Origin: a virus
DNA length: 64,000 nucleotides
Strand: one strand, 5' to 3'
IMG/VR virus record: IMGVR_UViG_3300045988_171858
The notes beneath the pieces were generated by a model, which saw nothing but the letters and a program-made list of their open reading frames with translations, was not told the origin of the DNA and searched no databases. Shown here piece after piece: positions 8,731 to 41,220 of the stretch (position 1 is its first letter; the number at the start of each line of letters is the position of its first letter). The position numbers were made by a program, and so were the translations under genes.

Positions 8731-10738
8731 TGTCTAACCTTTCTATGTATTGACAGAAGACCTTGTTTATATCATCCCACATAGGATACCGCTCATCTAA
8801 GATTTTTCGTATTTGTTGTTTGATTAAAATAATACCAACAACAATAAGCGGGTGCATAATATCCGTAGTGGTAATAGCATCTCCGCTATTCAGAATCTCA
8901 AGACCGATTTCCTTTGCTCTATTTTTAAGCAAGTCGGATCTGCAGTATATAAATTCCGAAAACGAGATTGACTCTCCGCCAAATTCGCAGCCTGCATGAA
9001 TAGTGTGTTGACCCAATTTGCTTCTGAGGAAGCCCTTGCCGTATTTAATAGCTTCTTCTTTCACCTCGTCGTCCATAAACTCCATCAATTTGTGAATATA
9101 GAGCCGATTGACATCACCAGCAGTGAAAGTTAAAACATTTGGTAAGCCACATGCTATTGCTGCTTCGAATCCTTTTGGAGTTCCTCGGCCGGCATAGATA
9201 TCTTTGCCAGGGAACAGCTTCTTAAGGGCACTTATCGCATTAGAATAATGCACTTGGCTAGTGCTTGGAGAACCAACTACAAACAATTCATCTGGCTTGA
9301 TTTTATCTACATCATAGACGAGTTCTTTTGAACCATTTGATGCGAAAAATATTACATCTGAAAAGCGAATAGATTCGCCTTCGCCTACACTGAACTGTCT
9401 CTTATTGACCCGACTTAAATATCTACGGACCTTAGGGCTATCCATATTGACAATATTGCACTCTTTGCCAATGGAGGCTGCAAATCTTCTAAGCTCGTCT
9501 TCTGGTTTGTCGATAAAAAGGGTTATACCTTTGGGCATACATGATGGAGGGACGATTGTCTCGGAATCCTTTACCATAGATGTAGGCGCGAAGTTAATGC
9601 AATCTTCCTTCATAATCGACCAAATCTGACCCATGATGTAGCCTTTGAGCTCTTTCTTTTGGACATCGGGTTCTGAAGACCTCGTTGCCTTAGAGCAATA
9701 CTTGCCCATTCCTGATTTATTCCAGTAACCCCATTTAAGACCGTCAAGAGCATCAAATCCGAGTTTATCAAATATCTTATCCAGGATTGGCCTTGTTTCA
9801 GGGAACAATACGATCCCGAATACCCAAGGGTTATCCAGAAGTTCCTCTTTGGTCATCTTCTTAATCTTATCGAAGACTTTGGTCATCTTCTCTCTATGGA
9901 TTTTTAACGACAGACTTCTTAAATCGTCATCGTAGGTAATACTTTCTCGAGACAAAGACACTTTTACTTCGCCAATAGGAACATCAAGGATAATTTGACT
10001 GTTGAAATAGGTTGGTACAGTCCTCATGGAATAAGTCGGGCCGCCAACGGATATCATCAGCGCTGACCGATAGTGTCCAGGAATACTCGTAACTCTGAGC
10101 CCATCTGTCACTTCGAAAACATTAACCTTAAACTCTTTGCCATCCAGCTTTGTCAATTTCGGCAATGGCCAAAACCCAATTAGCTGGTTTTGATAGGCTT
10201 CTTCAAGCTTGACGATATCTTCTGACTTAATCGGAATACGAACAGTAGTACCGTTTGGTTCGTCCGTATCTGCATCTTTAAGCATAACCTGATAGCTTGG
10301 CATATCATTATTCTTGGAAGTCATAATGACGTTTTTCTTTCCATCTTTTACAGATGTAGAAACGAAATAGTCTGCATAAGCTAATGGGCTTTTAGAACCA
10401 ATACCAAAGCCGCCGATGTCTTCGTTGTTGTCGTCTTTGGTAGACTTGAAGAATGTAGTATAGACATTAACCATGTCTTCATAGCTCATGCCAATACCGT
10501 TGTCTTTGATTTGGATGTAGTGCTCTACTCCATCTTTATGAGCGGAGATTTCTACTGGGCCTGTATAACCGGCTCGGCGGTTTGCATCATGAGCATTTGC
10601 CACGATTTCACGAATCATAGATTCAAACGGTTTTGAATACAAATCACCAAATAAACTTCGAAATGTTTTAGCTGTTACTTCGATATTGTATTTATTCTCT
10701 GCCGTTGTTTCGGTCTTACTTGCATTTTCAATAATCAT
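8702..10738 (-). CDS. rIIA: rIIA-like GHKL (HATPase_c) ATPase
   Basis: Start moved to ATG 10738 (GGAGGA RBS). N-box REIVANAHDA, G1 box DNGIGM, G2 box GGFGIGSKS. Lies directly upstream of rIIB and overlaps it by 29 nt. Confidence 0.85.
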   Translation of the reverse strand: MIIENASKTETTAENKYNIEVTAKTFRSLFGDLYSKPFESMIREIVANAHDANRRAGYTGPVEISAHKDGVEHYIQIKDNGIGMSYEDMVNVYTTFFKSTKDDNNEDIGGFGIGSKSPLAYADYFVSTSVKDGKKNVIMTSKNNDMPSYQVMLKDADTDEPNGTTVRIPIKSEDIVKLEEAYQNQLIGFWPLPKLTKLDGKEFKVNVFEVTDGLRVTSIPGHYRSALMISVGGPTYSMRTVPTYFNSQIILDVPIGEVKVSLSRESITYDDDLRSLSLKIHREKMTKVFDKIKKMTKEELLDNPWVFGIVLFPETRPILDKIFDKLGFDALDGLKWGYWNKSGMGKYCSKATRSSEPDVQKKELKGYIMGQIWSIMKEDCINFAPTSMVKDSETIVPPSCMPKGITLFIDKPEDELRRFAASIGKECNIVNMDSPKVRRYLSRVNKRQFSVGEGESIRFSDVIFFASNGSKELVYDVDKIKPDELFVVGSPSTSQVHYSNAISALKKLFPGKDIYAGRGTPKGFEAAIACGLPNVLTFTAGDVNRLYIHKLMEFMDDEVKEEAIKYGKGFLRSKLGQHTIHAGCEFGGESISFSEFIYCRSDLLKNRAKEIGLEILNSGDAITTTDIMHPLIVVGIILIKQQIRKILDERYPMWDDINKVFCQYIERLDNELQRNGQP

Positions 10739-10818
10739 TGTTTTCCTCCAGTTTGAAAATAAATACAAAATCAAATAAGTAGAGGCGGCAAGGATTACTC
10801 CCGCCGCCATATTACCAC

Positions 10819-11460
10819 TTACAGGAAGTCGATATCGACATCCTTAGCCTCTACGGCATTGTTTTCGTTATCAGCTTCAGTTTCTTCAATGCTTAATTGG
10901 CCAATACACTGATTATATACGTCAAATGCAGGCTTAATCATTCGGCCCACAAATGTCTTTTCTACAATCAGGTTGAACCATTTAGCAATTTCAGGGTCTT
11001 TCAAATCAATAGGCTTGCCATCATTATCAACGGTCTGACCTTTATTGTGCATACGTAGGAAATCACCGGTAAGCTTAATCAGATTATGTTGGTCAGCCCA
11101 AATAGCAATATTGATAATGGTCATAGCTGTTTCACGGCTATATCCCATTTCATTCACAATCGCTTCTACTACTTCTTTATGGACTGTCTGGTCAGAACCT
11201 AATGTCCCTAACATGAACTTTTGATGTTGAGTCGCGCCGCCCTTGATATGCTTGATCGCATTGATTACATACCGTTCATTAGTTTCGGTATATACATGGT
11301 CACATTCTTGGGCAATATTTTCATTGAGCGGGATTTTAACAAACTCTTTACCGGTTTTACCAGAAATGGCGCGATAAGCCAAATCTGAGCCTTCATTCAG
11401 CAATGCCAAATAAAGCTCAATAAGCATACCGAACTGCCACGCGTTATTAGTGCCGGGCAT
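10819..11460 (-). CDS. hypothetical protein (213 aa)
   Basis: ORF track. Clean coding frame. Confidence 0.7.
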   Translation of the reverse strand: MPGTNNAWQFGMLIELYLALLNEGSDLAYRAISGKTGKEFVKIPLNENIAQECDHVYTETNERYVINAIKHIKGGATQHQKFMLGTLGSDQTVHKEVVEAIVNEMGYSRETAMTIINIAIWADQHNLIKLTGDFLRMHNKGQTVDNDGKPIDLKDPEIAKWFNLIVEKTFVGRMIKPAFDVYNQCIGQLSIEETEADNENNAVEAKDVDIDFL

Positions 11461-11732
11461 ATGTTATCTTAAGGGTTTTTTATCCCTTAATTCTAGGACT
11501 TTCGTCGCATTACGGAATGTCAATTCATTCCTAGTTCAGCATATATTTTCATTCCAGAGGAATGTCGGGAACTCGTGGAGAAATTATATTCTACAAAAGT
11601 AGGTTCATTCTCTATGCGTTACGGAATTAATGGCCTTAGCCAATATATACATCTTTTAAAACGTATACTTCCTCGGTATTCCCATATCCAAAGACTTAGG
11701 GTTCACCGATATTTCCCGATGCACCTATAAGC

Positions 11733-14558
11733 TTACACCCATAGGGGGCCCAATTGACCAACGGCTTTCTTCGCGTTAGCAGAGTTTGTAATCAAGTCAA
11801 TGTAGCTTTCATCACCAGGACGCTTACAATAGGTAGGAGTATAGTGCAACTTATACTTCTTGGTCCAATCCAATTTCTTAATGCTGTCGTATTCTGACTG
11901 CAGGAAATCTTCATCCCATTGATACATCTTTTCTGTGATGTTGCTAAGCTTGAACTCCTTCATCATTTGCTGAGCTTCTTCTGGCAATACAGTAATCTGT
12001 AACAGGTCGCCGTCAATATCTGAGTGGCTACCTTTGATTACGTCTTTACCAATCAATGCGCAGTGCAAATTGGATTTAATATCCAGATAATCTTCCAGTG
12101 CAAAACCATATTCTTGCTTGAGGTAAGTGTCGAATTTGTTTGCGTCCCACAATTCTTTAATCAGCACCTGCGTTTTCCACAAGAACGGTGAACGTAATGT
12201 GAATGCATAGAGCTTCTTAAAGGCCTGAATAATGCCTTGTTCAACCGGCAGGTTTTTGGTTGGATAGACATATTCATGCAAATCGGTATAAATACGGTTA
12301 TTCAATACAACGACGACGCCGTCTGGGACGTATACATCGTGCATCTGTTTCATATTCACGCCGCGCAATCGTGGGGTAATCATAGTCTGAATCAGCGTCT
12401 GTCCTGAAATCTCCGAAGAGTACAACATAGACTTCAAGGATGCCATATAATTGCCATAAGCACTTACACGGTTTTGGTTAGCCTCATTGCGGCTCGGAAT
12501 AATCCGATAGTAATAAGGTTTACCAAGCAAAGCATTCTGAATCATCTTGCAGACTTCAATCAGGATGCCGGGATAGACATATTCACCATTGGTTTGCTTA
12601 CTGCAAAACATACCCAAAGTTTTAGCATCTGGAATACAGACTAACGTATTTTGACGCTGTTCGCTCAAATTGATATAGAATCCTTTGTTAAAGTCTTCAT
12701 CAAGAAGCTTAGAATACAATGGAAAGATAGAGCTATGTTCCAGAATCAAATCTTTTTCGGAGAAGTGATTCTTTAAACTACTTAATGTATAAACAGGTTT
12801 ATGCTCGGCAGACACAAAGCGGCGCGTCTTATCATTCAGACATTTCATCAACTCAATTACTGCTGACTTTTCATCTGGGTCAATACAATGGTCCAATACA
12901 TATTGCGCCAATCCAGAATCTTTAGTCTGAGAAATATAGCGCAAAGCATTGAAACTCATCTTTTGGTTACGAACCACTGTAAAATGGCTACCAATTTCGG
13001 TATAGTTGATTTGAACAACACCGTATAATCGGGTTTTGAATTCGACTTCCTCCCCTTCACGAATCATCTTGAAGGTTACTTCCGGAATGGACTTAGCAGC
13101 GGCATTGATTTCCTCTTCATCCATAGACGAGAGAAGCTTATCGCCGGAGGTAGGCTTGTAGTAACCATACTTCAATGCAAATGCAGCCTGCATTAAACGT
13201 ACGGTATTTTCCTTAGCTTTGATGCTATTGACACCTGTTAAGATATCAACTTCCATTTCGAAATCATCGGAGTAGATATTACCACAAGTCATCATGGTTT
13301 TGGTTACGCCTTTCAGACCTGTATGAGAAGTGATTCGTGAATTGCCTACTTTATAGTATGCTACGAAATCAATACGGGCTGAATTGTTATAACCGTTTTG
13401 AGATACTTTGGTTACTTCAATTTTAACGACGTTATCTACTGAGATTGGACGGCGGTCGAATGTGCCTAATGTTACAGACCCATTTTTTGCTGTATACACT
13501 TCGCCTTCTTTCACGAGAATCTCATCGAATTCCGTTTCTTTATGACGATTCATGAATACGATTTGATTACCAATACGACGGTTTACTTCTAAGTCGCCGC
13601 CGACTTGGTGATAGCTTTCAAAATCAATATCTTGATATACAACAATAGCATCCAACCCTCCATTATCCAAAGGAACATGGTCGCCTTTATCATCAAAGAC
13701 AAACGAACCATCAGGATTCACTGCAGCATCTTCAATGAACAAAGGCTTAGCGGGTTGCAATACGCCAAAGTGGTTGCCGTTTACATGAGTCTTCAAACGA
13801 GCAGGCAACGCAGAGGCTCGAGGGAAGATAGAAGAGAAACCTACAATACGACCATCATCATCGTATTCAAATCCAAAGCCTGAGCACGAAATATCAGCAT
13901 TGCCATCAGAAACAACAATCTTATTGCTTTCAGAAAGCATAGTTTCAGAACCGGGCATCAGATTGAAGCAATTAGCCATAGCTGTAATAGCTTCTTTATC
14001 TGGACTTGTAATTACACGCTGATGGACCAAATCACCAATAGGAAGATTCTGGTTCTTATAAACCAAAGAGGTGCCGGTATTGGTGCTGTAAGGAGCCCAT
14101 AAGACCAGAAGATTTGAAGACTTCAGGTTCGCATTAAATGCATTAGGACTTACATATTCAACGAAATTGGTAATCAACTTGATATCACGGCGAATGTAGG
14201 TCGTAAAAATCTCGTTGTTCTTCAGAGCGTCTTCAAATCGTTCAGCCAAGAAGAAGAACAGCATTTCAAAATGGTTAATCATTTCAATCGGCGCCCGTTT
14301 ATTGATATGGCGCGAACAGAAAGCGAAATGAGGCCAATGGTTCTTCGGATTAAAGAACGATTCAGGAATAATAAATTCGGTCTCAACAGTCTTTTCGTTG
14401 ATAGTATTAATCACCTTGAATCCGAACGTATTAGGCTTCAACTCAAACTCAATGCGCCCTTCAGTAGTCAAATGCTCACGAAAGATTGCATAGACTTCTG
14501 CTGGTGTAGAGTTTTTGCTGATTACTGGAATATGCCCTTGGGAAATTCTTAAGTGCAT
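11733..14558 (-). CDS. single-subunit two-barrel (double-psi beta-barrel) RNA polymerase-like protein, YonO/crAss type, copy 1 (941 aa)
   Basis: Start moved to ATG 14558; the track start lies inside the upstream terminator element. Beta-type DPBB motif GNSRITSHTGLKGVTK (nt 13305-13325) resembles GDKMAGRHGNKGVISK. Beta-prime-type LRSPFLWKTQVL resembles RAPTLHRLGIQA. Metal motif HSDIDGDLL (DIDGD at nt 12006-12020) resembles NADFDGDQM. Confidence 0.8.
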   Translation of the reverse strand: MHLRISQGHIPVISKNSTPAEVYAIFREHLTTEGRIEFELKPNTFGFKVINTINEKTVETEFIIPESFFNPKNHWPHFAFCSRHINKRAPIEMINHFEMLFFFLAERFEDALKNNEIFTTYIRRDIKLITNFVEYVSPNAFNANLKSSNLLVLWAPYSTNTGTSLVYKNQNLPIGDLVHQRVITSPDKEAITAMANCFNLMPGSETMLSESNKIVVSDGNADISCSGFGFEYDDDGRIVGFSSIFPRASALPARLKTHVNGNHFGVLQPAKPLFIEDAAVNPDGSFVFDDKGDHVPLDNGGLDAIVVYQDIDFESYHQVGGDLEVNRRIGNQIVFMNRHKETEFDEILVKEGEVYTAKNGSVTLGTFDRRPISVDNVVKIEVTKVSQNGYNNSARIDFVAYYKVGNSRITSHTGLKGVTKTMMTCGNIYSDDFEMEVDILTGVNSIKAKENTVRLMQAAFALKYGYYKPTSGDKLLSSMDEEEINAAAKSIPEVTFKMIREGEEVEFKTRLYGVVQINYTEIGSHFTVVRNQKMSFNALRYISQTKDSGLAQYVLDHCIDPDEKSAVIELMKCLNDKTRRFVSAEHKPVYTLSSLKNHFSEKDLILEHSSIFPLYSKLLDEDFNKGFYINLSEQRQNTLVCIPDAKTLGMFCSKQTNGEYVYPGILIEVCKMIQNALLGKPYYYRIIPSRNEANQNRVSAYGNYMASLKSMLYSSEISGQTLIQTMITPRLRGVNMKQMHDVYVPDGVVVVLNNRIYTDLHEYVYPTKNLPVEQGIIQAFKKLYAFTLRSPFLWKTQVLIKELWDANKFDTYLKQEYGFALEDYLDIKSNLHCALIGKDVIKGSHSDIDGDLLQITVLPEEAQQMMKEFKLSNITEKMYQWDEDFLQSEYDSIKKLDWTKKYKLHYTPTYCKRPGDESYIDLITNSANAKKAVGQLGPLWV

Positions 14559-14590
14559 TTTATATACCTTTCTAGGGTTAAATGTTACTT

Positions 14591-14625
14591 CCGTAAAAAG
14601 ACCGACACTCAATCGAGTGCCGGTC
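14591..14625 (-). terminator. conserved stem-loop element (CSE) copy
   Basis: Minus strand reads GACCGGCAC-TCGATTGA-GTGTCGGTC-TTTTTACGG. 9-bp stem with one G.U pair, followed by a T-tract. Confidence 0.8.
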
Positions 14626-14628
14626 AAC

Positions 14629-14749: not shown

Positions 14750-14929
14750 TTACTTTCCCTCGGTTGTTACCTCTTTATGCTTTGAGATCAATGAGCAGAC
14801 CATTTCATGGCAACAGCCACAGCAAGTAGTCGCGCCGGTCTCTTTTTGTATTGTTTCCAATTCTGCACCATTAACAGCCATAGCAGCAATAGTTTTATCA
14901 TTAATGTTATTACAAATACAAACAACCAT
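14750..14929 (-). CDS. BFD-like [2Fe-2S]-binding domain mini-protein (59 aa)
   Basis: My own translation gives MVVCICNNINDKTIAAMAVNGAELETIQKETGATTCCGCCHEMV... This shows the CxC...CxxC spacing typical of bacterioferritin-associated ferredoxin domains. AAGAAAGG RBS. One residue below the track cut-off. Confidence 0.6.
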   Translation of the reverse strand: MVVCICNNINDKTIAAMAVNGAELETIQKETGATTCCGCCHEMVCSLISKHKEVTTEGK

Positions 14930-14956
14930 CAGTCAAACCTTTCTTAAAAATAGTTT

Positions 14957-14997
14957 CAAATAAAAGAATCAGCCCAACACCTTTCGATGCTGGGGCT
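14957..14997 (-). terminator. intrinsic terminator-like hairpin
   Basis: Minus strand reads AGCCCCAGCA-TCGAAAGG-TGTTGGGCT followed by GATTCTTTTATTT. Confidence 0.55.
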
Positions 14998-15410
14998 TCT
15001 TCCTTTTCCATTAACCATCAGGGGAGATAATAGGGTGCCGTCTTTCCGTCGTCCCTGCGAATGCAAACCGTCGCCTACATGCTGTCAAGAAAGGTATCAT
15101 GTCAGGATTTTTCGGAGTCATGGATAATCCTGGAACCACGTGCATTATCGTTTGTGATTGTGCGTAAGAATGGGGCCGAGTGAGCATCAAGTCAACTGCG
15201 ATAAGATAAGCTGTGAGACATTTGTGCCCTCGGCGAGTTTGGTTGTTGGCTGGCACCTTGATATATCCGAACTTGTATACAAGGAAAGTCTGAATGGTGC
15301 ACTATGCGGTTTATCGTGTAGTCAATACGAGCAGAACCACTGTTATTTAAAGACTATCATGGGGTAAGCGCCGCCCATATAGAACACGCCTACCACATTA
15401 ACTTGTTTTA

Positions 15411-23130: not shown

Positions 23131-23160
23131 CCGTATAATAACCGACACTATTCTAAGGTC
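23131..23160 (-). repeat. CSE core copy without a good 5' arm
   Basis: Minus strand reads ...TAGAATA-GTGTCGGTT-ATTATACGG. Confidence 0.6.
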
Positions 23161-24124: not shown

Positions 24125-25504
24125 TTAGAACGGTTCGTCACCTTTCGGTTCAGCTTGTACAGGTTCCGCCGGTTTGGCTTGGCCACGACGAGGACGTTTG
24201 GTTTCTTTGGTAGCTGCAGGCTTCTCGGCTTCTACTTTTGCAGTATCAGCGAAGATATCTACATCACCCAAGTCCAGACCATTAACATCGATGCTGTCCA
24301 AATCAACATCAGCGGCAACAGTAACAGAGCCGGTTTCGTTACGGTTAACGATATAGCCGTCCATAGTTACGCGGGCGGTTACTACCCATGGTTGACCTTG
24401 CTCTTCGTCTTCACGAGGAGTGCGGCTTTCGAAACCCAAGACATTGTTCTCGGTGAACATGATTTCGTCCGCATTGGCGCTGACGTTATCAAAGGCTTCG
24501 GCACGGGTTTGTCCACGACCATTATTGCTGTTGCTGTACATTACTGCACGGACAGTAACATCATTACCGCGGCTGTCCTTGAAGTTCACGAACTTACGGC
24601 AATATTGGGTAGGATTAGTACCCTCAGTTACTTGGACACCAGCCAGATATCCTTCATGCAGTTCGTCTTGCTCCAGAGTAGTCATTTCGGCTTGACCAGT
24701 AATAGTCAGGCAGAAGTTAGGAGCAATGCGGCCGTATGCACGTGGGGTTGTACGGACATCGATTTGCTTACCGTTGCTAGTGGTTTTGTAGCTTGCTGCA
24801 GCAATTGGTACAATGCAAGGGCTCAAGCCATTTGCACCAACGTAGATTGTAGTAGAAGTGGCAATTGCACCGGCTTCAATCAGGCGTTTGATTTCGGCTT
24901 TGTAACCGGCAACGATTTTGGCCATCATTTCGGACAGCTGCTGTTCAGAGAAGGCTACACGTTCGCCGTCTTTTTCCTTGGCGGTAACGATGTTCTTCTC
25001 ATGGCTGATGAATGCAGAACCAGACAGCAGGGCTTCATAGGCCTTGGAGAGACTCAAAGCTTTCAGTGCCAGACCGTTTGCCTTTTCGTACCATTCGGCG
25101 CCAAATACAGGGCCTACAGGAACGGGGAAGTTTGCCAGCTTGCCGTTTTGGATAGACAAACCATTGAAGCCTGCATCCAGAAATTCCATTGCATTTGCAT
25201 TGGCATTACGGACAGATGCTACGATTTGGTTGGTAGTCATACCTTCAACGTATTGAACACCATCATCGGCGTTGGTAGCAATCCAACAGGGGCGTCCGTT
25301 GCCGCGAGACATCGGTTGGTTGGCGATCATGTGCACCAGTTTGTATACGGATACACGATAGCCCAAAGCCTCGGCTTCGTCTGGACGTGCATCCAGAACG
25401 TAAAAGGTGCGGCGACTTGCAGGCATTGGAGTTGCTACTTGGCCGGAGATAGAGTGGGATTTGCGGGCGCCAGTGTTCAGGTTGCCAGTTTCGATTTCAA
25501 ACAT
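24125..25504 (-). CDS. abundant-looking early/middle protein; possible ssDNA-binding-type protein with SSB-like C-terminal tip (459 aa)
   Basis: Start moved to MFEIETGN (AAAGGAAAA RBS). Strongly biased, GC-richer codon usage similar to the capsid genes. Disordered K/P/E/A-rich tail ending ...KGDEPF, compared with the E. coli SSB tip DDDIPF. The function is an inference only. Confidence 0.8.
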   Translation of the reverse strand: MFEIETGNLNTGARKSHSISGQVATPMPASRRTFYVLDARPDEAEALGYRVSVYKLVHMIANQPMSRGNGRPCWIATNADDGVQYVEGMTTNQIVASVRNANANAMEFLDAGFNGLSIQNGKLANFPVPVGPVFGAEWYEKANGLALKALSLSKAYEALLSGSAFISHEKNIVTAKEKDGERVAFSEQQLSEMMAKIVAGYKAEIKRLIEAGAIATSTTIYVGANGLSPCIVPIAAASYKTTSNGKQIDVRTTPRAYGRIAPNFCLTITGQAEMTTLEQDELHEGYLAGVQVTEGTNPTQYCRKFVNFKDSRGNDVTVRAVMYSNSNNGRGQTRAEAFDNVSANADEIMFTENNVLGFESRTPREDEEQGQPWVVTARVTMDGYIVNRNETGSVTVAADVDLDSIDVNGLDLGDVDIFADTAKVEAEKPAATKETKRPRRGQAKPAEPVQAEPKGDEPF

Positions 25505-25597
25505 AATGATTTTCCTTTTAGGTTGATTTAAAATAAAGATTCTTTCGGTCAAGATTCAGACCATAGAGCTGTTTTGTATTGAGGTCAGCTCTGTTTT

Positions 25598-29974: not shown

Positions 29975-32900
29975 TTACAGCATATCAATGGCTGCATCCA
30001 TATCAACTTCGTGGTAAGACTCGGTCTCAACAGCCTCACCATTAGCCAAAGCTTCTGCCTCAGCAGATTTAACCTCGGCAATAGTTTGGATTTGTGCAAT
30101 CACTTCGCGGCTCAGAGATTTTAAGATGAAGCTGAAAGGCGATTTGCCATTAACGTCCAGTAGGTTATTAACAGCTTTAACATCATCAAGGCCAAAGAAG
30201 AAGGACGTATTGTAAACCTCGGTCACATCTTTGGTGTAAACGGTAAAGTGCACGTTTTTCCAAGTGGCGGTGTGAGCCATACGGACTGCATTGGCTTTAT
30301 TCCAACGATAACCTTCTTGGCCACGGCTACGTTTGTCTTCCTCAAACAGTTCGACGAACAGCTTAGCGATCTCATAAGCCTTGGCATCGTCTTCGATAGA
30401 CATCAATTCGAATGCTTTTTCAAAAGCCTCGGTCATGCAATCAAGGTCAGTCTCCTTGTTGCGCAGGTTTAAATATTCGCAGAAACGAACCATACCATTG
30501 CTATGTTTCATATTCTCTACGACTTCTTTTTGCAGCAAGATGCCCATAGCATCAATAGCCAGGTTGGCCAACTCACTATAACCAGCTTTATTGCGGATCA
30601 AATGTGTCAGAGTAATCAGATTATTAGTCTCGCTACCAACACCAGTTTTTGCGGCGACAATTTCCTCCACTGCCGGTTGTACGTCCTCTTTGCCCCATAC
30701 CATAACAGATTTCTCACCAATCTCCTTGGTATTCAAAGAACCCAGCTCGTCTTCTACGTATGAGAGCTGTTGTTTGGCACTATTACATGCCAACAACTTA
30801 GACTCGCTCCATTGTTCTTGGCCTTCATAGCCTTTGGCCCAGAACAAAGTCAAACGGTCGCCGTCGGCGTCGTCCCTATTGGCCATATGAGACAGTGCGT
30901 CTACAAACACAACGCTCTCGCAGATGAAACGATTCAGCTCTAACTCAGCTTCTGACTCAAACGCCATCAGAGTTTTAACTTCCGCATTGTATAAACGGAA
31001 GTTATTTTCCATCAAAATTGGGAATTTGATGGCTCCGACTTCACCCTTCTTGGCGGCCTCTTTGTAGCTACGGTCCGCAGTTATCACTTTAAATCCAGAT
31101 TCAAAATGGTAGCTAACCGGCAAAGAACGACCTTTAGGCAAAGAGAATTTCAAACCTTTGTAAGCACCGAAAGTTTCCTCGATAGCCAGCAGGTGCTTAG
31201 CATGGGTTTTAACCAAGCCTACAGCTTCCCAAGTTTTAGTACCTCTGGTTTTAGCCATGAGTACAATAGAAGCGAGAGACTTGAAGAAGTCGCCACCAGT
31301 GTATTGTAGCCCGGATACATGGTAACCAGTGATTGTCTCTGGTTTATCCCAGAAGTTAGAGCCAGGGAATACAAAGCTGTGGTCTCCAGCTACAACTTCG
31401 AAACCGCGAGGCATATTTAACAGGCCGGGGAATTTACCTTTGCCATTAAACAGGTTAGTAAGGAATGTCTTCATAACAGACTCAGCGGTCTCATCACCAA
31501 CCAGAGACACGCGTTTAACTTGCTCAACAGACAAAGATCCATTACCTGCAAACATAACGGCGAACTTATCCGCCCACCAGGTACGAGTCATGGCCAAGAA
31601 TTCATTTGCAGTAACAGTCCAATCCACAGATTTAGCAGCAGCAACCGCTTTGGCAGTGCGTTTACCAGTGCGGCCTGCAATGAAAGTTTTGAACAAAGTC
31701 TCACCATATTGACGGATCATTTGGTCCGCCAAAAGAACACCACCTTCTGCAGAGTGAGACACTGCTTCAACAGTGCCAGCACGTTTCATCTCTAAAAGAC
31801 GAACTACAGGCGAATATGTTGTATCGCCAGCTTTCAACTCTGAAAGAAGCTCGTTCATCAAAGTCATTTCAGGCGCCTCAATTTCTACACCCTCGATTTT
31901 GTCATTGACGCTAATTTCCGCGCCAACTCGTTTGTGTCCTTGCAACGTATAGAAGTCAGAGACATAAATCTCCTCTTCAATCAGGGCAAACGTATAAGTG
32001 AGGCCATCGATATTTACAGACTTGCTATTAAGGGTAATCGCCGTATTGGCAGTTGCACGAAAATCAGCGTCCTCCAACAAACGCAACATAAATTGGCTTA
32101 AATCGCCACCCATAATTGCATGTGCTACACCTACCATCTTAGATTTAAGCATAGGAGACACAATATCAACGCCCAGATAGTCGATCAATGCGTCAACATT
32201 GGCAACGTTTGTTACCACACCTTTCAAGTGGTGGAAGCTAACCACGCGCATTTTGCCGTACTGCTGGATTAAGGTTTTACGGGCATAGCATGCACCACCA
32301 CCCAGATTCATTGCCAAGGGGTGGGCTTTAGCTTGTTCCAGGGTCTTAACTTTGTTGCCTTCTTCGTCCGTTACAGACAACAGCACCGCAACCTTACGTA
32401 CGCCAATAGATACCTTAGTGTCCAGATCGGGATTCAGGATGCCCCTAGCAATAGCCTTTTTAACATCATAAACGCTGATGTATTTACCAGTCAGCTCAGG
32501 ATGATTAACCGCTACCATATTATTACCAGCTTTGCGGCTAATGAACATAGCCTCTCCAACAGGCATTCCAAGTTTCCAACTGGTATCAGGAGACGTATTA
32601 AGCAGGTCGCCCTGTTTGACCACTACACCTTTAGGTGCAGGTTTATCGGCTTTAACAACTACGACACCTCCTGATTTACGCTTCAGGGCGTCTACCAATT
32701 TTACACCTTCAGTATTGATTCCGACCATCCAGTCGAGCAGAACTTCGATAGATTCTGTGACTGACGCAATCCCATTCTTGTAAGACACAAAACCGTGACG
32801 GACAACAGTTTCGCGGCCCAATGGAGAATTGATCAAAGAAGTTGCAATAGTCCCACGTTGTGCAACAACGCGAACAGAGCCCTTTTTAGGACGGCGGATG

Positions 32901-33382
32901 TTAATATCCACTTTACCCACGATAGGCAGGCTTTCACCGGCTTTGATAGTGCAGATTTCACGAGCCCAGCTTTTGATAGTATCCAGCTCCTCTTGTGTTG
33001 GCTCTTTGCCGGCTTTAACTTGCTCAATGCGCTGCACGTGGCAAGGCACACCTTCTACTTCAAAACTGTAAGCCATTTCTTCCTCCTTGGCTGTATTTAA
33101 AACAAGGGCCTCTACTTCTGCATTAGCCCAAGATAATGCTTCTTTTCTAGAGCCCACCTCTTTAACAGAAATGACAGTCCCGTCTTTGACAACCGCTATT
33201 AATTCAGGACGCATAGCAGCGGCTTTGCTATTACTCAGAGCAACAACCTCAACACCAGCTACGGCACGAATGCCGGCTTTGATGTGAGCTTTATGCTCGT
33301 ATTGTTCTACAGCAGCTTCGTAAGCTTTAGCAGCAGCAGCATTAACAGAAGAAACAAAGGTTTTGAAAGTAATAGTTGACAT
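29975..33382 (-). CDS. single-subunit two-barrel RNA polymerase-like protein, YonO/crAss type, copy 2 (1135 aa)
   Basis: Start moved to MSTITFKT (AAAGGAAA RBS). Beta-type DPBB motif GKMRVVSFHHLKGVVTN (nt 32213-32233). Beta-prime-type AIKFPILMENNFRLYNAEV. Metal motif ANRDDADGDRLTLFW (DADGD at nt 30857-30871). The motif order matches 11733..14558, but the two sequences are otherwise highly diverged. Confidence 0.75.
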   Translation of the reverse strand: MSTITFKTFVSSVNAAAAKAYEAAVEQYEHKAHIKAGIRAVAGVEVVALSNSKAAAMRPELIAVVKDGTVISVKEVGSRKEALSWANAEVEALVLNTAKEEEMAYSFEVEGVPCHVQRIEQVKAGKEPTQEELDTIKSWAREICTIKAGESLPIVGKVDINIRRPKKGSVRVVAQRGTIATSLINSPLGRETVVRHGFVSYKNGIASVTESIEVLLDWMVGINTEGVKLVDALKRKSGGVVVVKADKPAPKGVVVKQGDLLNTSPDTSWKLGMPVGEAMFISRKAGNNMVAVNHPELTGKYISVYDVKKAIARGILNPDLDTKVSIGVRKVAVLLSVTDEEGNKVKTLEQAKAHPLAMNLGGGACYARKTLIQQYGKMRVVSFHHLKGVVTNVANVDALIDYLGVDIVSPMLKSKMVGVAHAIMGGDLSQFMLRLLEDADFRATANTAITLNSKSVNIDGLTYTFALIEEEIYVSDFYTLQGHKRVGAEISVNDKIEGVEIEAPEMTLMNELLSELKAGDTTYSPVVRLLEMKRAGTVEAVSHSAEGGVLLADQMIRQYGETLFKTFIAGRTGKRTAKAVAAAKSVDWTVTANEFLAMTRTWWADKFAVMFAGNGSLSVEQVKRVSLVGDETAESVMKTFLTNLFNGKGKFPGLLNMPRGFEVVAGDHSFVFPGSNFWDKPETITGYHVSGLQYTGGDFFKSLASIVLMAKTRGTKTWEAVGLVKTHAKHLLAIEETFGAYKGLKFSLPKGRSLPVSYHFESGFKVITADRSYKEAAKKGEVGAIKFPILMENNFRLYNAEVKTLMAFESEAELELNRFICESVVFVDALSHMANRDDADGDRLTLFWAKGYEGQEQWSESKLLACNSAKQQLSYVEDELGSLNTKEIGEKSVMVWGKEDVQPAVEEIVAAKTGVGSETNNLITLTHLIRNKAGYSELANLAIDAMGILLQKEVVENMKHSNGMVRFCEYLNLRNKETDLDCMTEAFEKAFELMSIEDDAKAYEIAKLFVELFEEDKRSRGQEGYRWNKANAVRMAHTATWKNVHFTVYTKDVTEVYNTSFFFGLDDVKAVNNLLDVNGKSPFSFILKSLSREVIAQIQTIAEVKSAEAEALANGEAVETESYHEVDMDAAIDML

Positions 33383-33513
33383 AATAATTTCCTTTTTGTA
33401 AGTAAAATAAAAAATAAAAGATAAACTGTTTCGGATGTTTTCATCCATCATCAGCAGAGACACACATCTCTGGACAGTAAGCAGTTTATAGTCATGCTTA
33501 GGACATTAAGACA

Positions 33514-38625: not shown

Positions 38626-39585
38626 ATGATGTTGATGACGGAAGAACACCGTGTCGGGATAATCTACGGCGTCCGGTCTTCAAGAGACATCATCTTACTG
38701 TGAATTAGTCCTAGAGAAATCTAAATAACCTCGAGAGGCGAGGTCGGATGAGACAGTAATGAAACTCCTAGACGTGGGCGAGCCTAACCAAAGGAGTCAG
38801 TCGAAAACTCGTTGTTGAAGTAGCGTAAACTCCCTGATACAAACTCCCTGATTCAAAGTAATGTATCAAAGTAATACGAGAGGTGGCGAGTATAAATAAA
38901 TTTCCTGTTATGCAGTGGATTGTAACCGAAAATGATACAAGTAGGCCACATGGGAAGATGAAACATCTCTGGTCTTGTAGAGATAGCATATTGAGCTACA
39001 AGATGATACCGAAAGGTATGACTATAAATGGAAGTATAAACGGTCCATGGATTGAGTTCCTTGGAGGGTCAAGATGGGTGAAGAAAAAGCCTAGGGCATA
39101 GTTCTCTTACAATTAGGATTATGTCAGTAAGACATCTACGTTGTACAACAAGGTTAGACTGGGTTTAGTTAGATTAGATTCTAACTAGAAGACTGTATCA
39201 ATTTTTGTCTTCTAACCGTGCTTGGTTAGGCCTAACTGTATCTACAGAAAACGTAAACTTCCATAAGAAACGTATAATAGAGGCAAGTTTACTAAGATAA
39301 CTTCCGATTATAATAATAGATCGGCCGCGCAGGAGCGGCCCGGATAAAAGAAAAGAAACTTCCCAAAGCAAAAAGAAACTTACTGCAGATAGATAATATA
39401 ATCTATCGATACAAAGAATACTTATTACCCTATTGATGTAGATAATACATAGGCTGCTACCGCAGCCCTAAGTTACCAATAGGAAAATAAACATAGGCTT
39501 AGGATACTTACTTAAGCTTGTTGTAGTCTACAATTATATTTGATAATATTTGGAGGTAGCTTGATGCTACCTCCTATTTTATTTT
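38626..39585 (+). ncRNA. candidate ~0.95-kb non-coding early transcript
   Basis: Starts just after P2 and ends at a strong terminator. No ORF has a credible RBS. Many local hairpins and short tandem repeats. Confidence 0.3.
39552..39585 (+). terminator. intrinsic terminator
   Basis: GGAGGTAGC-TTGAT-GCTACCTCC followed by TATTTTATTTT. Confidence 0.85.
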
Positions 39586-39894: not shown

Positions 39895-41220
39895 ATGGCT
39901 ATTCCAAATAAAGAAATCCAAGAAATGTTCGACTTATCTGCAGGTATTATCTCTGCTCATGAAATGAGGGAAAAAGAGAAAACTAAGACCAAAACAGAAG
40001 TTGAAAAAACAGTATCTATGATACAAGAAAAAGAATCCAAATCTATTCCGATTCTATTTTCAGCTAGAGGCATCAAAGTTGCTGACAATAAGATTACAAG
40101 AGCTAGATACCTAGATGCTCTATCTCTAGATAACAAATTATACGAAAGTATTGTTCTTACTGAATCTGAAGCATTGGCATTCAGTACAAGTCTACGCCGT
40201 TCTACAGATGGTGGTATTTCCACTTACTCACCTATGATTTGCAGAGGTTCAAACTGCAAAGTAAAAGAGACATGCTTAACTGGTGATGCAATGGTCTCTA
40301 TGCACGACGGTAAACAAGTAAGAATCGACCGTATTAAAAGCGGCGATAAAATCATTTCATTCAATACGAGAACAAAACGTATTGAGCAAGACACTGTATA
40401 TGCAACGGCATATGTTGGCGAAGAGTTGGTGTATGAAATTACCACTACCGCCGGCCATTGCATTAAGGCAACATCAAACCATCCGTTCTTTGCAATAAAA
40501 GGACGAGGTTCAAAATTCAAGTTCTTATCAATCGATGATGGACTTACAGTAGGCAGCAAGCTAGTGTATGAAGACCTATTCAGCGAAGAAGAGAATTCAT
40601 ATGGAGACTGCCTAATTACCAAGATCGAATCCATAGAGACTGTTGGTGTTCTTCCAGTCTATGATATTCAGGTCTTTAAAAACTCTAATTTCTTTGCAGA
40701 AGGGCTACTTGTCCATAACTGCCAGTTGCATAAGATGAACAAGGCCCCGGTGGGAGCTCCGTGTATTTATGAACAGGATTACTTGCGCAGCCAGACGGAA
40801 AGGTACTTCGAAGAGTTTAATGTTCAACCAGACAGCCCGACGGAAATGCAGATGGTTGCAGAACTCGCAGAAATCGACCTCTATGAAAGGAGAGTTACCC
40901 AAATCCTCTCATTGACCCACCAAGACTTTAGCCAAGAAGACCTGATGGGTTTTGATGCCGGCGGTAATATGATTGCCCGTGATGATATTTCAAGGTATCT
41001 AAACATCAAAGAGAAACTGAAGAACAGAAGAAGCAAACTTCTAGAATCACTAATGGCGACGAGGAAAGAACGTGCTAAGATTGCTGTTCAGGCATCTGGC
41101 GCAGGTGTCGGAAACGGAAGTCAGTCACTCAAAGATAAACTTGATATGCTTACTGCTGCAACACGAGGACAGTATAGAGACCCATCAGTGATAAATGGTT
41201 CGAAAAATGACACAAACTAA
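39895..41220 (+). CDS. intein-containing protein; Cys-rich extein (292 aa), possibly a packaging accessory or small terminase
   Basis: ORF track. First gene of the plus-strand packaging module. After splicing the extein would read ...ICRGSNCKVKET|CQLHKMNKAPVGAPC... The extein function is not recognised. Confidence 0.8.
   Translation: MAIPNKEIQEMFDLSAGIISAHEMREKEKTKTKTEVEKTVSMIQEKESKSIPILFSARGIKVADNKITRARYLDALSLDNKLYESIVLTESEALAFSTSLRRSTDGGISTYSPMICRGSNCKVKETCLTGDAMVSMHDGKQVRIDRIKSGDKIISFNTRTKRIEQDTVYATAYVGEELVYEITTTAGHCIKATSNHPFFAIKGRGSKFKFLSIDDGLTVGSKLVYEDLFSEEENSYGDCLITKIESIETVGVLPVYDIQVFKNSNFFAEGLLVHNCQLHKMNKAPVGAPCIYEQDYLRSQTERYFEEFNVQPDSPTEMQMVAELAEIDLYERRVTQILSLTHQDFSQEDLMGFDAGGNMIARDDISRYLNIKEKLKNRRSKLLESLMATRKERAKIAVQASGAGVGNGSQSLKDKLDMLTAATRGQYRDPSVINGSKNDTN
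40273..40719 (+). mobile_element. mini-intein (149 aa, no homing-endonuclease domain)
   Basis: Block A CLTGDAMVSM, block B TSNHPFF, block F VYDIQVFKNSNFFAEG, block G LLVHN followed by +1 Cys. Confidence 0.85.

Follow-up and report, generated by a model that had tools for sequence, protein, structure and literature searches.

A phage gene split by a group I intron and probably encoding a single-chain two-barrel RNA polymerase

Introduction

What does the long minus-strand gene near 11-15 kb of the virus record IMGVR_UViG_3300045988_171858 encode, and where does that gene end? The stretch analysed here, referred to as the window, comprises 64,000 nt of this IMG/VR record, and all positions are counted along its whole length. 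A first-pass annotation, made from the letters alone, had read an open reading frame (ORF) of this region as a single-chain RNA polymerase (RNAP) with two double-psi beta-barrels. Such polymerases are minimal relatives of the universal transcription enzyme, and each of their lineages is informative about the catalytic core and about RNAP evolution. To our knowledge, only a few lineages have been recognised, namely YonO, crAss gp66, and P23-45 gp64 with its tape-measure-fused enzyme. The analysis described below leads to the view that the locus quite probably encodes a 1146-amino-acid (aa) single-chain two-barrel RNAP, in which a beta-like half precedes a beta'-like half, and that its mRNA would be spliced to remove a group I intron lying between G934 and P935.

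Gene structure and the spliced product

The minus-strand ORF extends over 11733-14627 when opened at a TTG codon and over 11733-14558 (941 aa) when opened at an ATG. The ATG at 14558 is the likely start codon, because homologous proteins open with MHLRIS or MKLRIS, a ribosome-binding site (RBS), AGAAAGG, precedes the ATG by 8 nt, and the TTG extension contains a GC-rich hairpin followed by a T-run. On the same grounds (homolog N-termini, RBS near the ATG, hairpin and T-run at 14600-14625), the TTG start at 14627 was rejected.

At the other end, the 941-aa chain, initially taken for the whole protein, proved to be exon 1 of a longer gene, as its last seven codons (QLGPLWV) and its stop codon are intron sequence. 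Exon 1 closes with AAA GCC GTT GGT, 299 nt follow, and the conserved frame then resumes with CCC GGC ACT, inside an ORF that the original list gave as 10819-11460. When 11757-14558 is joined to 10819-11457, the product has 1146 aa and aligns without a single gap to the uninterrupted homolog P0001, with 1068 of 1146 residues identical (93%). P0001 (94% identity in the homolog search) and P0003 (89%), both uninterrupted, are 1146-1147 aa long and read NSANAKKAVG/PGTNNSWQFGML at the corresponding place, that is, AVG/PGT (a slash marks the insertion point here and below). At the DNA level, the intron-less allele L014 has the empty site GCGGTTGGT/CCAGGTACC. The uninterrupted homologs, the gapless alignment of the spliced product and the empty site in L014 therefore identify the 941-aa ORF as the first exon of a split gene, called the RNAP gene below. 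Its parts are as follows.

11757-14558, minus strand: exon 1 of the putative RNAP gene (934 codons; beta-like and beta'-like barrel motifs), defined by the ORF list, the gapless alignment to P0001 and homolog N-termini.
11458-11756, minus strand: putative group I intron, 299 nt, no ORF, defined by in-frame insertion relative to intron-less alleles and by covariation.
10819-11457, minus strand: exon 2, with 212 codons and a stop, encoding the helical C-terminal domain of the putative RNAP and defined by uninterrupted homologs reading AKKAVG/PGTNNSWQFGML.
14567-14625, minus strand: 5' control region, with the hairpin GACCGGCACTCGATTGAGTGTCGGTC and T-run (14600-14625), which include GTGTCGGT (14601-14608), and the RBS AGAAAGG (14567-14573); it is kept upstream of the RNAP gene in the related loci L001, L002 and L014.

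Fold and catalytic motifs

The assignment of the spliced protein to the two-barrel RNAP superfamily is supported by its predicted fold and by its catalytic motifs. An AlphaFold2 (AF2) model built on a 20-sequence alignment reached a pLDDT of 84.4 and a pTM of 0.80 and is confident through residue ~1120. When this model was compared with the PDB by Foldseek, the top 19 matches, which are all those with E<=1e-3, were RNAP beta/Rpb2-type chains (E 1.8e-6 to 1.4e-4, probability 1.00). They span human Pol I, II and III as well as archaeal, bacterial and African swine fever virus (ASFV) enzymes, for example 7d58_B, 7l7b_C, 2waq_B and 8xxt_B. Next came beta' chains, QDE-1, 6vr4_A (crAss phi14:2 gp66) and 8f5m_A (P74 gp62), with E values of 2e-3 to 3e-2. 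Among viral models (BFVD), orthologs from Acinetobacter phage ME3 ranked first, followed by segments of crAss-like virion RNAPs (vRNAPs; E 1e-9 to 1e-7); giant-virus (nucleocytoplasmic large DNA virus, NCLDV) and poxvirus RNAP beta subunits, P23-45 A7XX94 and LEF-9 were also matched. A 'minor tail protein' of Siphoviridae sp. ctnpt50 appeared in the same search (E 1e-8; family not established).

The catalytic motifs were examined in the family alignment of 20 sequences, which reaches down to 24% identity; residue counts refer to the sequences covering a position, and the E. coli beta and beta' segments used for comparison were verified against the actual E. coli sequences. The following elements are found in the spliced protein.

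13299-13346, minus strand: beta-type barrel motif GNSRITSHTGLKGVTK, residues 405-420; compare E. coli beta GDKMAGRHGNKGVISK.
12162-12197, minus strand: beta'-type barrel motif LRSPFLWKTQVL, residues 788-799; compare E. coli beta' NRAPTLHRLGIQ (RAPTLH); intron site A in relatives.
11982-12029, minus strand: putative catalytic metal-binding motif SHSDIDGDLLQITVLP, residues 844-859, with DIDGD at 12006-12020; site B in relatives.
11437-11786, minus strand: bridge-helix candidate NSANAKKAVG/PGTNNAW, residues 925-941; the intron enters it between G934 and P935 (site C).
11236-11268, minus strand: VINAIKHIKGG, residues 998-1008, resembling the beta' trigger-loop TFHIGG (verified in E. coli as TMRTFHIGGAA).

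In the beta-type motif, R408, S411, G414 and K416-G417-V418-T419-K420 are invariant (20/20). Judged by the motif itself rather than by superposition, the basic residues R408, K416 and K420 of GNSRITSHTGLKGVTK correspond to the K1065/K1073 region of E. coli beta, GDKMAGRHGNKGV. In the beta'-type motif, R789 and P791 are kept in all 19 sequences and W794 in 18 of them. The metal-binding motif reads H-S-D-I-D-G-D-L at 845-852, comparable to NADFDGD of beta', and S846, D847, D849, G850, D851 and L852 are each conserved in 18/18. At site C, A929, K930 and G934 (18/18) and W941 (14/14) are likewise invariant, and the AF2 model places A929-K930, G934 and W941 in a 37-residue helix, 919-955, which may be the bridge helix. 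Additionally, I1002, K1003 and G1008 (14/14 each) and H1004 (12/14) are conserved in VINAIKHIKGG, so that I-K-H-x-x-G-G (1002-1008) is a candidate trigger-loop-like element. All three motifs quoted in the first-pass annotation are thus in place, including DIDGD, and they follow one another in a single chain in the beta-then-beta' order it had described. Their resemblance to cellular RNAPs goes beyond chance, as the key residues are invariant wherever the alignment covers them.

Several results speak against this identification. The protein has no match in Pfam or PHROGs, and a phmmer search and a profile search of the PDB returned nothing. Comparison of the family profile by hhalign was not significant for E. 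coli beta (E=0.38) or beta' (E=0.07), and with the YonO-like gp99 of Bacillus phage 0305phi8-36 it gave E=0.22 in an unrelated region. Moreover, the Foldseek TM-scores are low (0.13-0.23), and the match is one of scores, not of residue-level geometry of barrels, bridge helix or trigger loop. The top hhalign segment against beta' (overall E=0.07) is nevertheless the catalytic motif, aligned to HSDIDGDLLQITVLP-EEAQ in the NADFDGD region. Of the two checks proposed beforehand, the fold prediction returned RNAP matches and the sequence-profile comparison returned no significant hit; these profile results agree with the earlier remark that nothing outside the motifs is recognisable. The two-barrel reading itself is upheld by the confident model, the RNAP-dominated Foldseek matches and the conserved motifs.

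The top structural matches are of the beta/Rpb2 type, not enzymes of the YonO/QDE-1 type, and no link was detected to gp99 or, at E<=10, to PF05183. The predicted fold and the motifs support membership of the two-barrel RNAP superfamily, within which the protein stands outside every named family and forms a previously unannotated one.

The 299-nt group I intron

Excision of 11458-11756 restores the reading frame of a conserved gene. Copies of the insert were gathered from relatives, all at the identical codon, and nine of them were analysed by RNAalifold. The copies fall into the following types.

L001, L002 and L005: window-type intron, 299 nt.
L008: window-type intron with an upstream ORF, length cut by the locus end.
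L006 and L007: second-type intron, 371 nt.
L003 and L004: second-type intron with a 361-aa ORF near the 5' end, in the P1 loop, 1382 nt.
L009: divergent-type intron, 279 nt; the host protein is 37% identical to that of the window.

Every copy is preceded by U and ends in G. The elements that define the intron in the window are these.

11458, minus strand: candidate omega-G, the terminal intron nucleotide; in nine of nine copies a final G directly abuts CCN GGN AC or GGT GCG AC of exon 2.
11747-11759, minus strand: predicted P1 helix, exon GGU (11757-11759) and intron C1 against the internal guide GGCC (intron nucleotides 7-10, 11747-11750).
11539-11617, minus strand: predicted P7, GCAUA (11613-11617) with UAUGC (11539-11543), enclosing P7.1, P7.1a, P3' (11565-11570) and P8.

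In P1, the U of the splice site stands opposite a G, forming a wobble pair, and position +1 covaries, being C-G in the window and G-C in L009 (five copies computed). The 5' strand of P3 lies at 11714-11719, so that P3 crosses P7 in the manner of the group I P3-P7 pseudoknot; five of its eight pairs show compensatory changes. P7 is invariant and thus provides no evidence from covariation, and its pairing was added by hand. RNAalifold recovered P2, the long-range P3, P4-P5-P5a, P6, two helices nested between P7 and P3', P8 and P9.1, with compensatory changes in 28 of 76 pairs. In the curated structure, which includes P7, 97.7% of cells are paired versus 27-45% in slid controls, and changes on both sides occur in 30 of 78 pairs versus 0-6. 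The helix order is that of canonical group I introns, and the topology is subgroup-IA-like (P1, P2, P3-P9, P7.1/P7.1a, P9.1), the extra P7.1-type helices being what we take to be typical of subgroup IA phage introns in the Michel-Westhof classification.

Two observations count against this reading. The Rfam model RF00028 failed to detect the window insert at the gathering threshold and at E<=10, and the intron call therefore rests on comparative structure. Furthermore, the last three bases of the insert are AUG (UUG in one lineage), a codon in frame with exon 2 from which a 213-aa C-terminal piece might be translated separately. On the supporting side, site-C introns are patchy, being carried by some close relatives and missing from others. 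Judged by its conserved architecture, the insert is best read as a group I intron of a lineage missed by RF00028, and it would be expected to self-splice.

Other classes of insert were considered and set aside. A group II intron is excluded by the shortness of the insert and by the lack of GUGYG...AY ends, and the Rfam group II models gave no detection at the gathering threshold or at E<=10. In-frame stops exclude an intein, and a length of 299 nt is far beyond known translational bypass elements. Within the intron, a helix between the guide region and the 3' strand of P9, proposed by RNAalifold (A2 columns 9-12 with 277-280), was rejected; L008 breaks its long-range form, and L009 has a simple local P9 hairpin.

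The 361-aa ORF carried by some site-C introns (L003 5857-6942; also L011 3174-3692 and L008) has repeated N-terminal modules and the C-terminal sequence IDIYFP...GIECNG. The one database signal it gives, to PvuRts1I-like_N (E=0.003), stays below the Pfam cutoff, and a homing endonuclease of the PD-(D/E)XK type is a possible identity.

Relatives and intron hot spots

The family is large and has remained unannotated. A search of 5.8 billion proteins yielded 21 homologs, none of them annotated, and a profile search of 1.84 billion representative proteins yielded 186 clusters at 50% identity, 96 of which had E<=1e-30 and ~50 of which were full length; no Pfam domain was found even in distant members. 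Against phage genomes, megablast gave no match to the RNAP gene, and the tblastn matches were limited to ME3 and a PBAB25 fragment. Among cultured phages, the gene is carried solely by ME3, an Acinetobacter jumbo phage of the genus Metrivirus that has been called a genomic orphan and whose isolate is reported lost (PMC8878043). Literature on ME3 or Metrivirus RNAP, and on the HOLDH RNA treated below, contained no description of this RNAP that we could find. ME3 is not among the exceptions in the survey of Iyer et al., and the family therefore escaped a dedicated survey.

In ME3 (L012, NC_041884.1 222114-226849), the gene is represented by gp152 and gp154, both annotated as hypothetical, on either side of gp153, an 'endonuclease'. 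The two flanking products form one RNAP gene, with the start of gp154 called ~20 codons late. The gap between them is a group I intron with a homing-endonuclease ORF, inserted inside R-N-P/...L-W, and here RF00028 scores 51 bits (E 1e-11). A lineage at 49% identity (IMG/VR contigs L032-L037) has an insert at the same motif, R-N-P-F-L/W-K, of 413 nt in L033 (4865-5277) and 1203 nt in L032; the L033 insert scores 36 bits with RF00028 (E 8.5e-8). A borderline group II D1-D4 match in L033 was taken as spurious, since RF00028 covers the same insert at full length. L035-L037 carry introns at both site A and site C.

Throughout the family, three places recur as termini of gene-call fragments, namely R-x-P, D-x-D/G-D and AK-x-AVG. 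Many members are called as fragments ending in D-x-D or starting with GD (P0128-P0141, P0178, P0182, P0205, P0218, P0226), which suggests, at the level of protein gene calls, that insertions also recur at a third place, DxD/GD, in the midst of the catalytic aspartates.

In a phage lineage at 45% identity, a permuted (alpha-type) tmRNA gene lies ~2 kb upstream of the RNAP gene (L029 288-714 and L039 308-734; RF01849 ~105 bits, RF04321 ~117 bits).

Alternative explanations

The in-frame AUG at the end of the window insert (UUG in the L006 type) raises the question of whether the RNA no longer splices and the gene is simply split, the 941-aa product (ending in QLGPLWV) and a 213-aa product starting at the last three intron bases acting as two subunits. 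Gene callers routinely give two ORFs at the site-C locus, and phage multisubunit RNAPs do work as split polypeptides (PMC7598289, PMC7824862). Against this, the ribozyme core is under constraint, all its helices being kept by compensatory changes across lineages whose host proteins are 37-50% identical, while the boundaries conform to the U/G rule of group I introns and P1 is kept. Alleles without the interruption occur at 94% protein identity, the break would fall in the middle of a predicted continuous helix, and no clear Shine–Dalgarno sequence precedes the AUG. A gene split into two subunits is consequently judged quite unlikely, and a spliced single chain is preferred.

For that chain, a two-barrel fold could also belong to an enzyme other than a phage transcriptase, such as a QDE-1-like RNA-dependent RNA polymerase (RdRP), a primase-like enzyme or a PolD-like DNA polymerase. 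Template specificity is unreadable from sequence, QDE-1 chains do occur among the Foldseek matches (E 5e-3 to 3e-2), and the related phage 0305phi8-36 encodes an RdRP-family-like enzyme. DNA-dependent RNAP beta subunits, however, match better by two to three orders of magnitude, PolD is absent from the top 50 Foldseek matches, and there is neither a PF05183 match nor similarity to gp99. The characterised phage two-barrel enzymes (YonO, crAss gp66, P23-45 gp64 and the tape-measure fusion) are all DNA-dependent RNAPs (PMC5467207; bioRxiv 10.1101/2022.12.01.518664), and a different activity of the fold appears unlikely. It is very improbable that the resemblance in motifs and fold is an artefact and the protein a non-polymerase, for example a structural protein with beta-barrels. 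The absence of a significant sequence-profile match to any polymerase and the low TM-scores would fit such an artefact; three catalytic motifs in the right order, with catalytic residues invariant over 18-20 sequences, and the dominance of RNAPs in both Foldseek libraries do not. Moreover, homing introns hit exactly these motifs, as expected of functionally essential sequence. A DNA-dependent, single-chain RNAP encoded by an intron-split gene thus remains the favoured interpretation.

Genomic context and a candidate promoter

At 7963-10810 and 6423-7925 (minus strand), directly downstream of the RNAP gene, lie homologs of rIIA (702 aa) and rIIB (255 aa) and then an adhesin-like gene, whose homolog in L014 has YadA-type domains. 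The large terminase subunit, portal protein and major capsid protein are encoded in a rightward gene block. Compared by capsid protein, the cultured phages closest to this one are ME3 (35%) and the group of Bacillus phage 0305phi8-36 (30-33%; 0305phi8-36 itself 31.7%).

Reliance of the phage on sigma70 promoters, which had been assumed in the first-pass annotation, finds no support around the gene; a simple scan gave 12 sites versus 23 +/- 5 expected. Another element is strongly enriched. The 8-mer GTGTCGGT occurs 17 times in the window versus 0.8 expected, and 16 copies fall within 14.6-29.9 kb on the minus strand (14608, 19516, 20015, 22213, 23148, 23564, 25617, 26939, 27320, 27849, 28079, 28148, 28876, 29040, 29495 and 29883), the seventeenth being inside an ORF at 61888. 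The copies share the consensus GTGTCGGT-nn-TTTTATGG, are mostly intergenic and, where an ORF follows, typically precede it by 14-66 nt. One copy, kept in L001, L002 and L014, is 50 nt upstream of the RNAP ATG. A strong complementary upstream arm, giving a hairpin and T-run, is present in only about half of the copies, and terminator function alone therefore cannot explain the conserved 3' sequence. The element is a candidate promoter of the phage, perhaps one that doubles as a terminator. The copies at 23148 and 23564 fall in a 1.2-kb ORF-free stretch.

Several other features of the window were recorded.

14750-15410, minus strand: small genes upstream of the RNAP gene, namely a basic peptide of ~38 aa and an ORF of ~59 aa whose position is that of a BFD-like [2Fe-2S] protein in L001.
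15011-15410: ~400 nt without a convincing ORF.
24125-25552: long ORFs on both strands, 475 aa (minus) and 458 aa (plus), in an island of 47% G+C versus 33% in the adjoining 22-24 kb region; the minus-strand ORF has no family match.
38626-39019, plus strand: a full-length HOLDH RNA (Rfam RF02997, 397 bits, E 1.6e-107), in a ~1.4-kb ORF-poor region that separates the leftward and rightward gene blocks.
39895-41220, plus strand: a 441-aa ORF in which Pfam Intein_splicing marks an intein at residues 134-275 (E 2e-17); similarity of the host protein to the PHROG helicase and NrdD families is no more than weak.

A candidate second polymerase

The window contains another ORF of interest, which is probably the one that the first-pass annotation had in mind as a second copy of the enzyme.

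29975-33463, minus strand: 1162-aa ORF, with its true start at M28 (33382).

This ORF carries RVVSFHHLKGVV, which resembles RITSHTGLKGVT, followed by NRDDADGDRLTLFW and AKTGVGSETNN, in the order of the RNAP motifs. Comparison with the RNAP family by hhalign is suggestive at most (P=21%, E=1e-3); it pairs RDDADGDRL with HSDIDGDLL and, collinearly, AKTGVGSETNN with AKKAVGPGTNN. The ORF has many unannotated homologs, all with at least 70% identity, and no match in the phage database, PHROG or Pfam. On the shallow alignment of these homologs, AF2 gave a low-confidence model (pLDDT 37.7). The gp99 protein of 0305phi8-36 has no detectable relationship to this ORF or to the RNAP-gene protein. Motif order and profile pairing make it plausible that the 1162-aa ORF is a very distant paralog of the RNAP; such paralogy, if real, would imply a two-polymerase system as in P23-45, phiKZ or AR9.

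Proposed mechanism

By homology, the three aspartates of H-S-D-I-D-G-D in the beta'-like barrel would hold the catalytic Mg2+, and the invariant basic residues R408, K416 and K420 of the beta-like barrel would make contact with the 3' end of the RNA and with the incoming NTP. Helix 919-955 would serve as the bridge helix, with the I-K-H-x-x-G-G loop as a trigger-loop-like element. We infer that the enzyme most likely acts on a DNA template and would transcribe phage DNA without the host polymerase. Its candidate promoter would be GTGTCGGT-N2-TTTT-ATGG, found upstream of 16 leftward genes including the RNAP gene itself. Before translation, guanosine-initiated self-splicing would ligate GUUGGU to CCCGGC and restore the reading frame, giving the expected exon junction AAAGCCGUUGGU/CCCGGCACU.

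Implications

Taken together, the separate lines of evidence can be assembled into a broader scheme, which is possible but doubtful as a whole. It would comprise a new family of fused beta-beta' RNAPs, nearer to the cellular type than to the YonO/RdRP type and perhaps with a trigger-loop-like H-x-x-GG, present in ME3 as well as in a widespread clade of uncultured phages of ~170-190 kb. With the still more divergent paralog at 29975-33463, the enzyme would form a complete transcription system independent of the host RNAP and using GTGTCGGT-N2-TTTT-ATGG. The gene would be a hot spot for group I introns (shown at R-x-P-F-L/W and AK-x-AVG/, with gene calls breaking at DxD/GD), one intron lineage of which escapes Rfam.

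The family was unannotated in every database searched, and its model lies nearer to beta/Rpb2-type than to RdRP-type chains, which could make it a compact, possibly trigger-loop-bearing model enzyme. By implication, ME3-like phages and a large group of uncultured phages may transcribe independently of their hosts. Introns lead gene callers to truncate or split the RNAP gene in most genomes, and this hides the family. The locus also seems to offer a clear example of RNA polymerase active-site motifs on which homing introns have converged, and the candidate promoter motif makes the transcription system directly testable.

Comparison with known systems

One close parallel in design is gp66 of crAss phage phi14:2 (PDB 6VR4), which, like the protein described here, is a single phage chain with both double-psi beta-barrels that ordinary sequence search does not see. 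The 6vr4_A match had E=1.2e-2 and a probability of 0.66, and crAss-like segments in BFVD reached E 1e-9 to 1e-7. The two nevertheless lack sequence similarity, and gp66 has ~2200 aa and is packaged in the virion, whereas the present protein has 1146 aa and is encoded among early/middle-type genes beside rIIA/rIIB. YonO of SPbeta and gp99 of Bacillus phage 0305phi8-36 (ABS83659.1) are likewise single-chain two-barrel RNAPs of ~100-130 kDa from large tailed phages. They differ in that the RNAP described here has no PF05183 match and no hhalign similarity to gp99, which is PF05183-like by annotation. Moreover, the conserved H-x-x-GG loop may be a trigger-loop equivalent, unlike the situation in YonO, which reportedly lacks a trigger loop.

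Minimal and highly divergent two-barrel RNAPs are also known from phages P23-45/P74-26, namely gp64/gp62 (PDB 8F5M) and the tape-measure-fused vRNAP. P23-45 has two RNAPs, and a second candidate is present here at 29975-33463; in P23-45, the virion RNAP transcribes the gene of the non-virion RNAP (bioRxiv 10.1101/2022.12.01.518664). The matches to this group are weak (E 4e-3 to 2e-2), hosts and lineages differ, and the present locus has no tape-measure fusion. In the jumbo phages phiKZ and AR9, virion and non-virion RNAP paralogs occur together (PMC7598289), and these enzymes resemble cellular beta/beta' and are independent of the host RNAP. They are split into 4-5 polypeptides and are detectable by sequence, in contrast to the one fused chain described here, which is not.

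For the intron, the relevant comparison is with the T4 td/nrdB/nrdD-type IA introns (RF00028). The present introns differ from these in that the window copy escapes RF00028 at E<=10, the host gene encodes a putative RNAP, and the ORF, where present, lies in the P1 loop. Both groups share the U-G wobble, the omega-G, the P3-P7 pseudoknot and P7.1 helices. Further common points are a homing-endonuclease ORF that some copies carry in a peripheral loop, an insertion point within the best-conserved codons of a gene for an essential enzyme, and a patchy distribution among close relatives.

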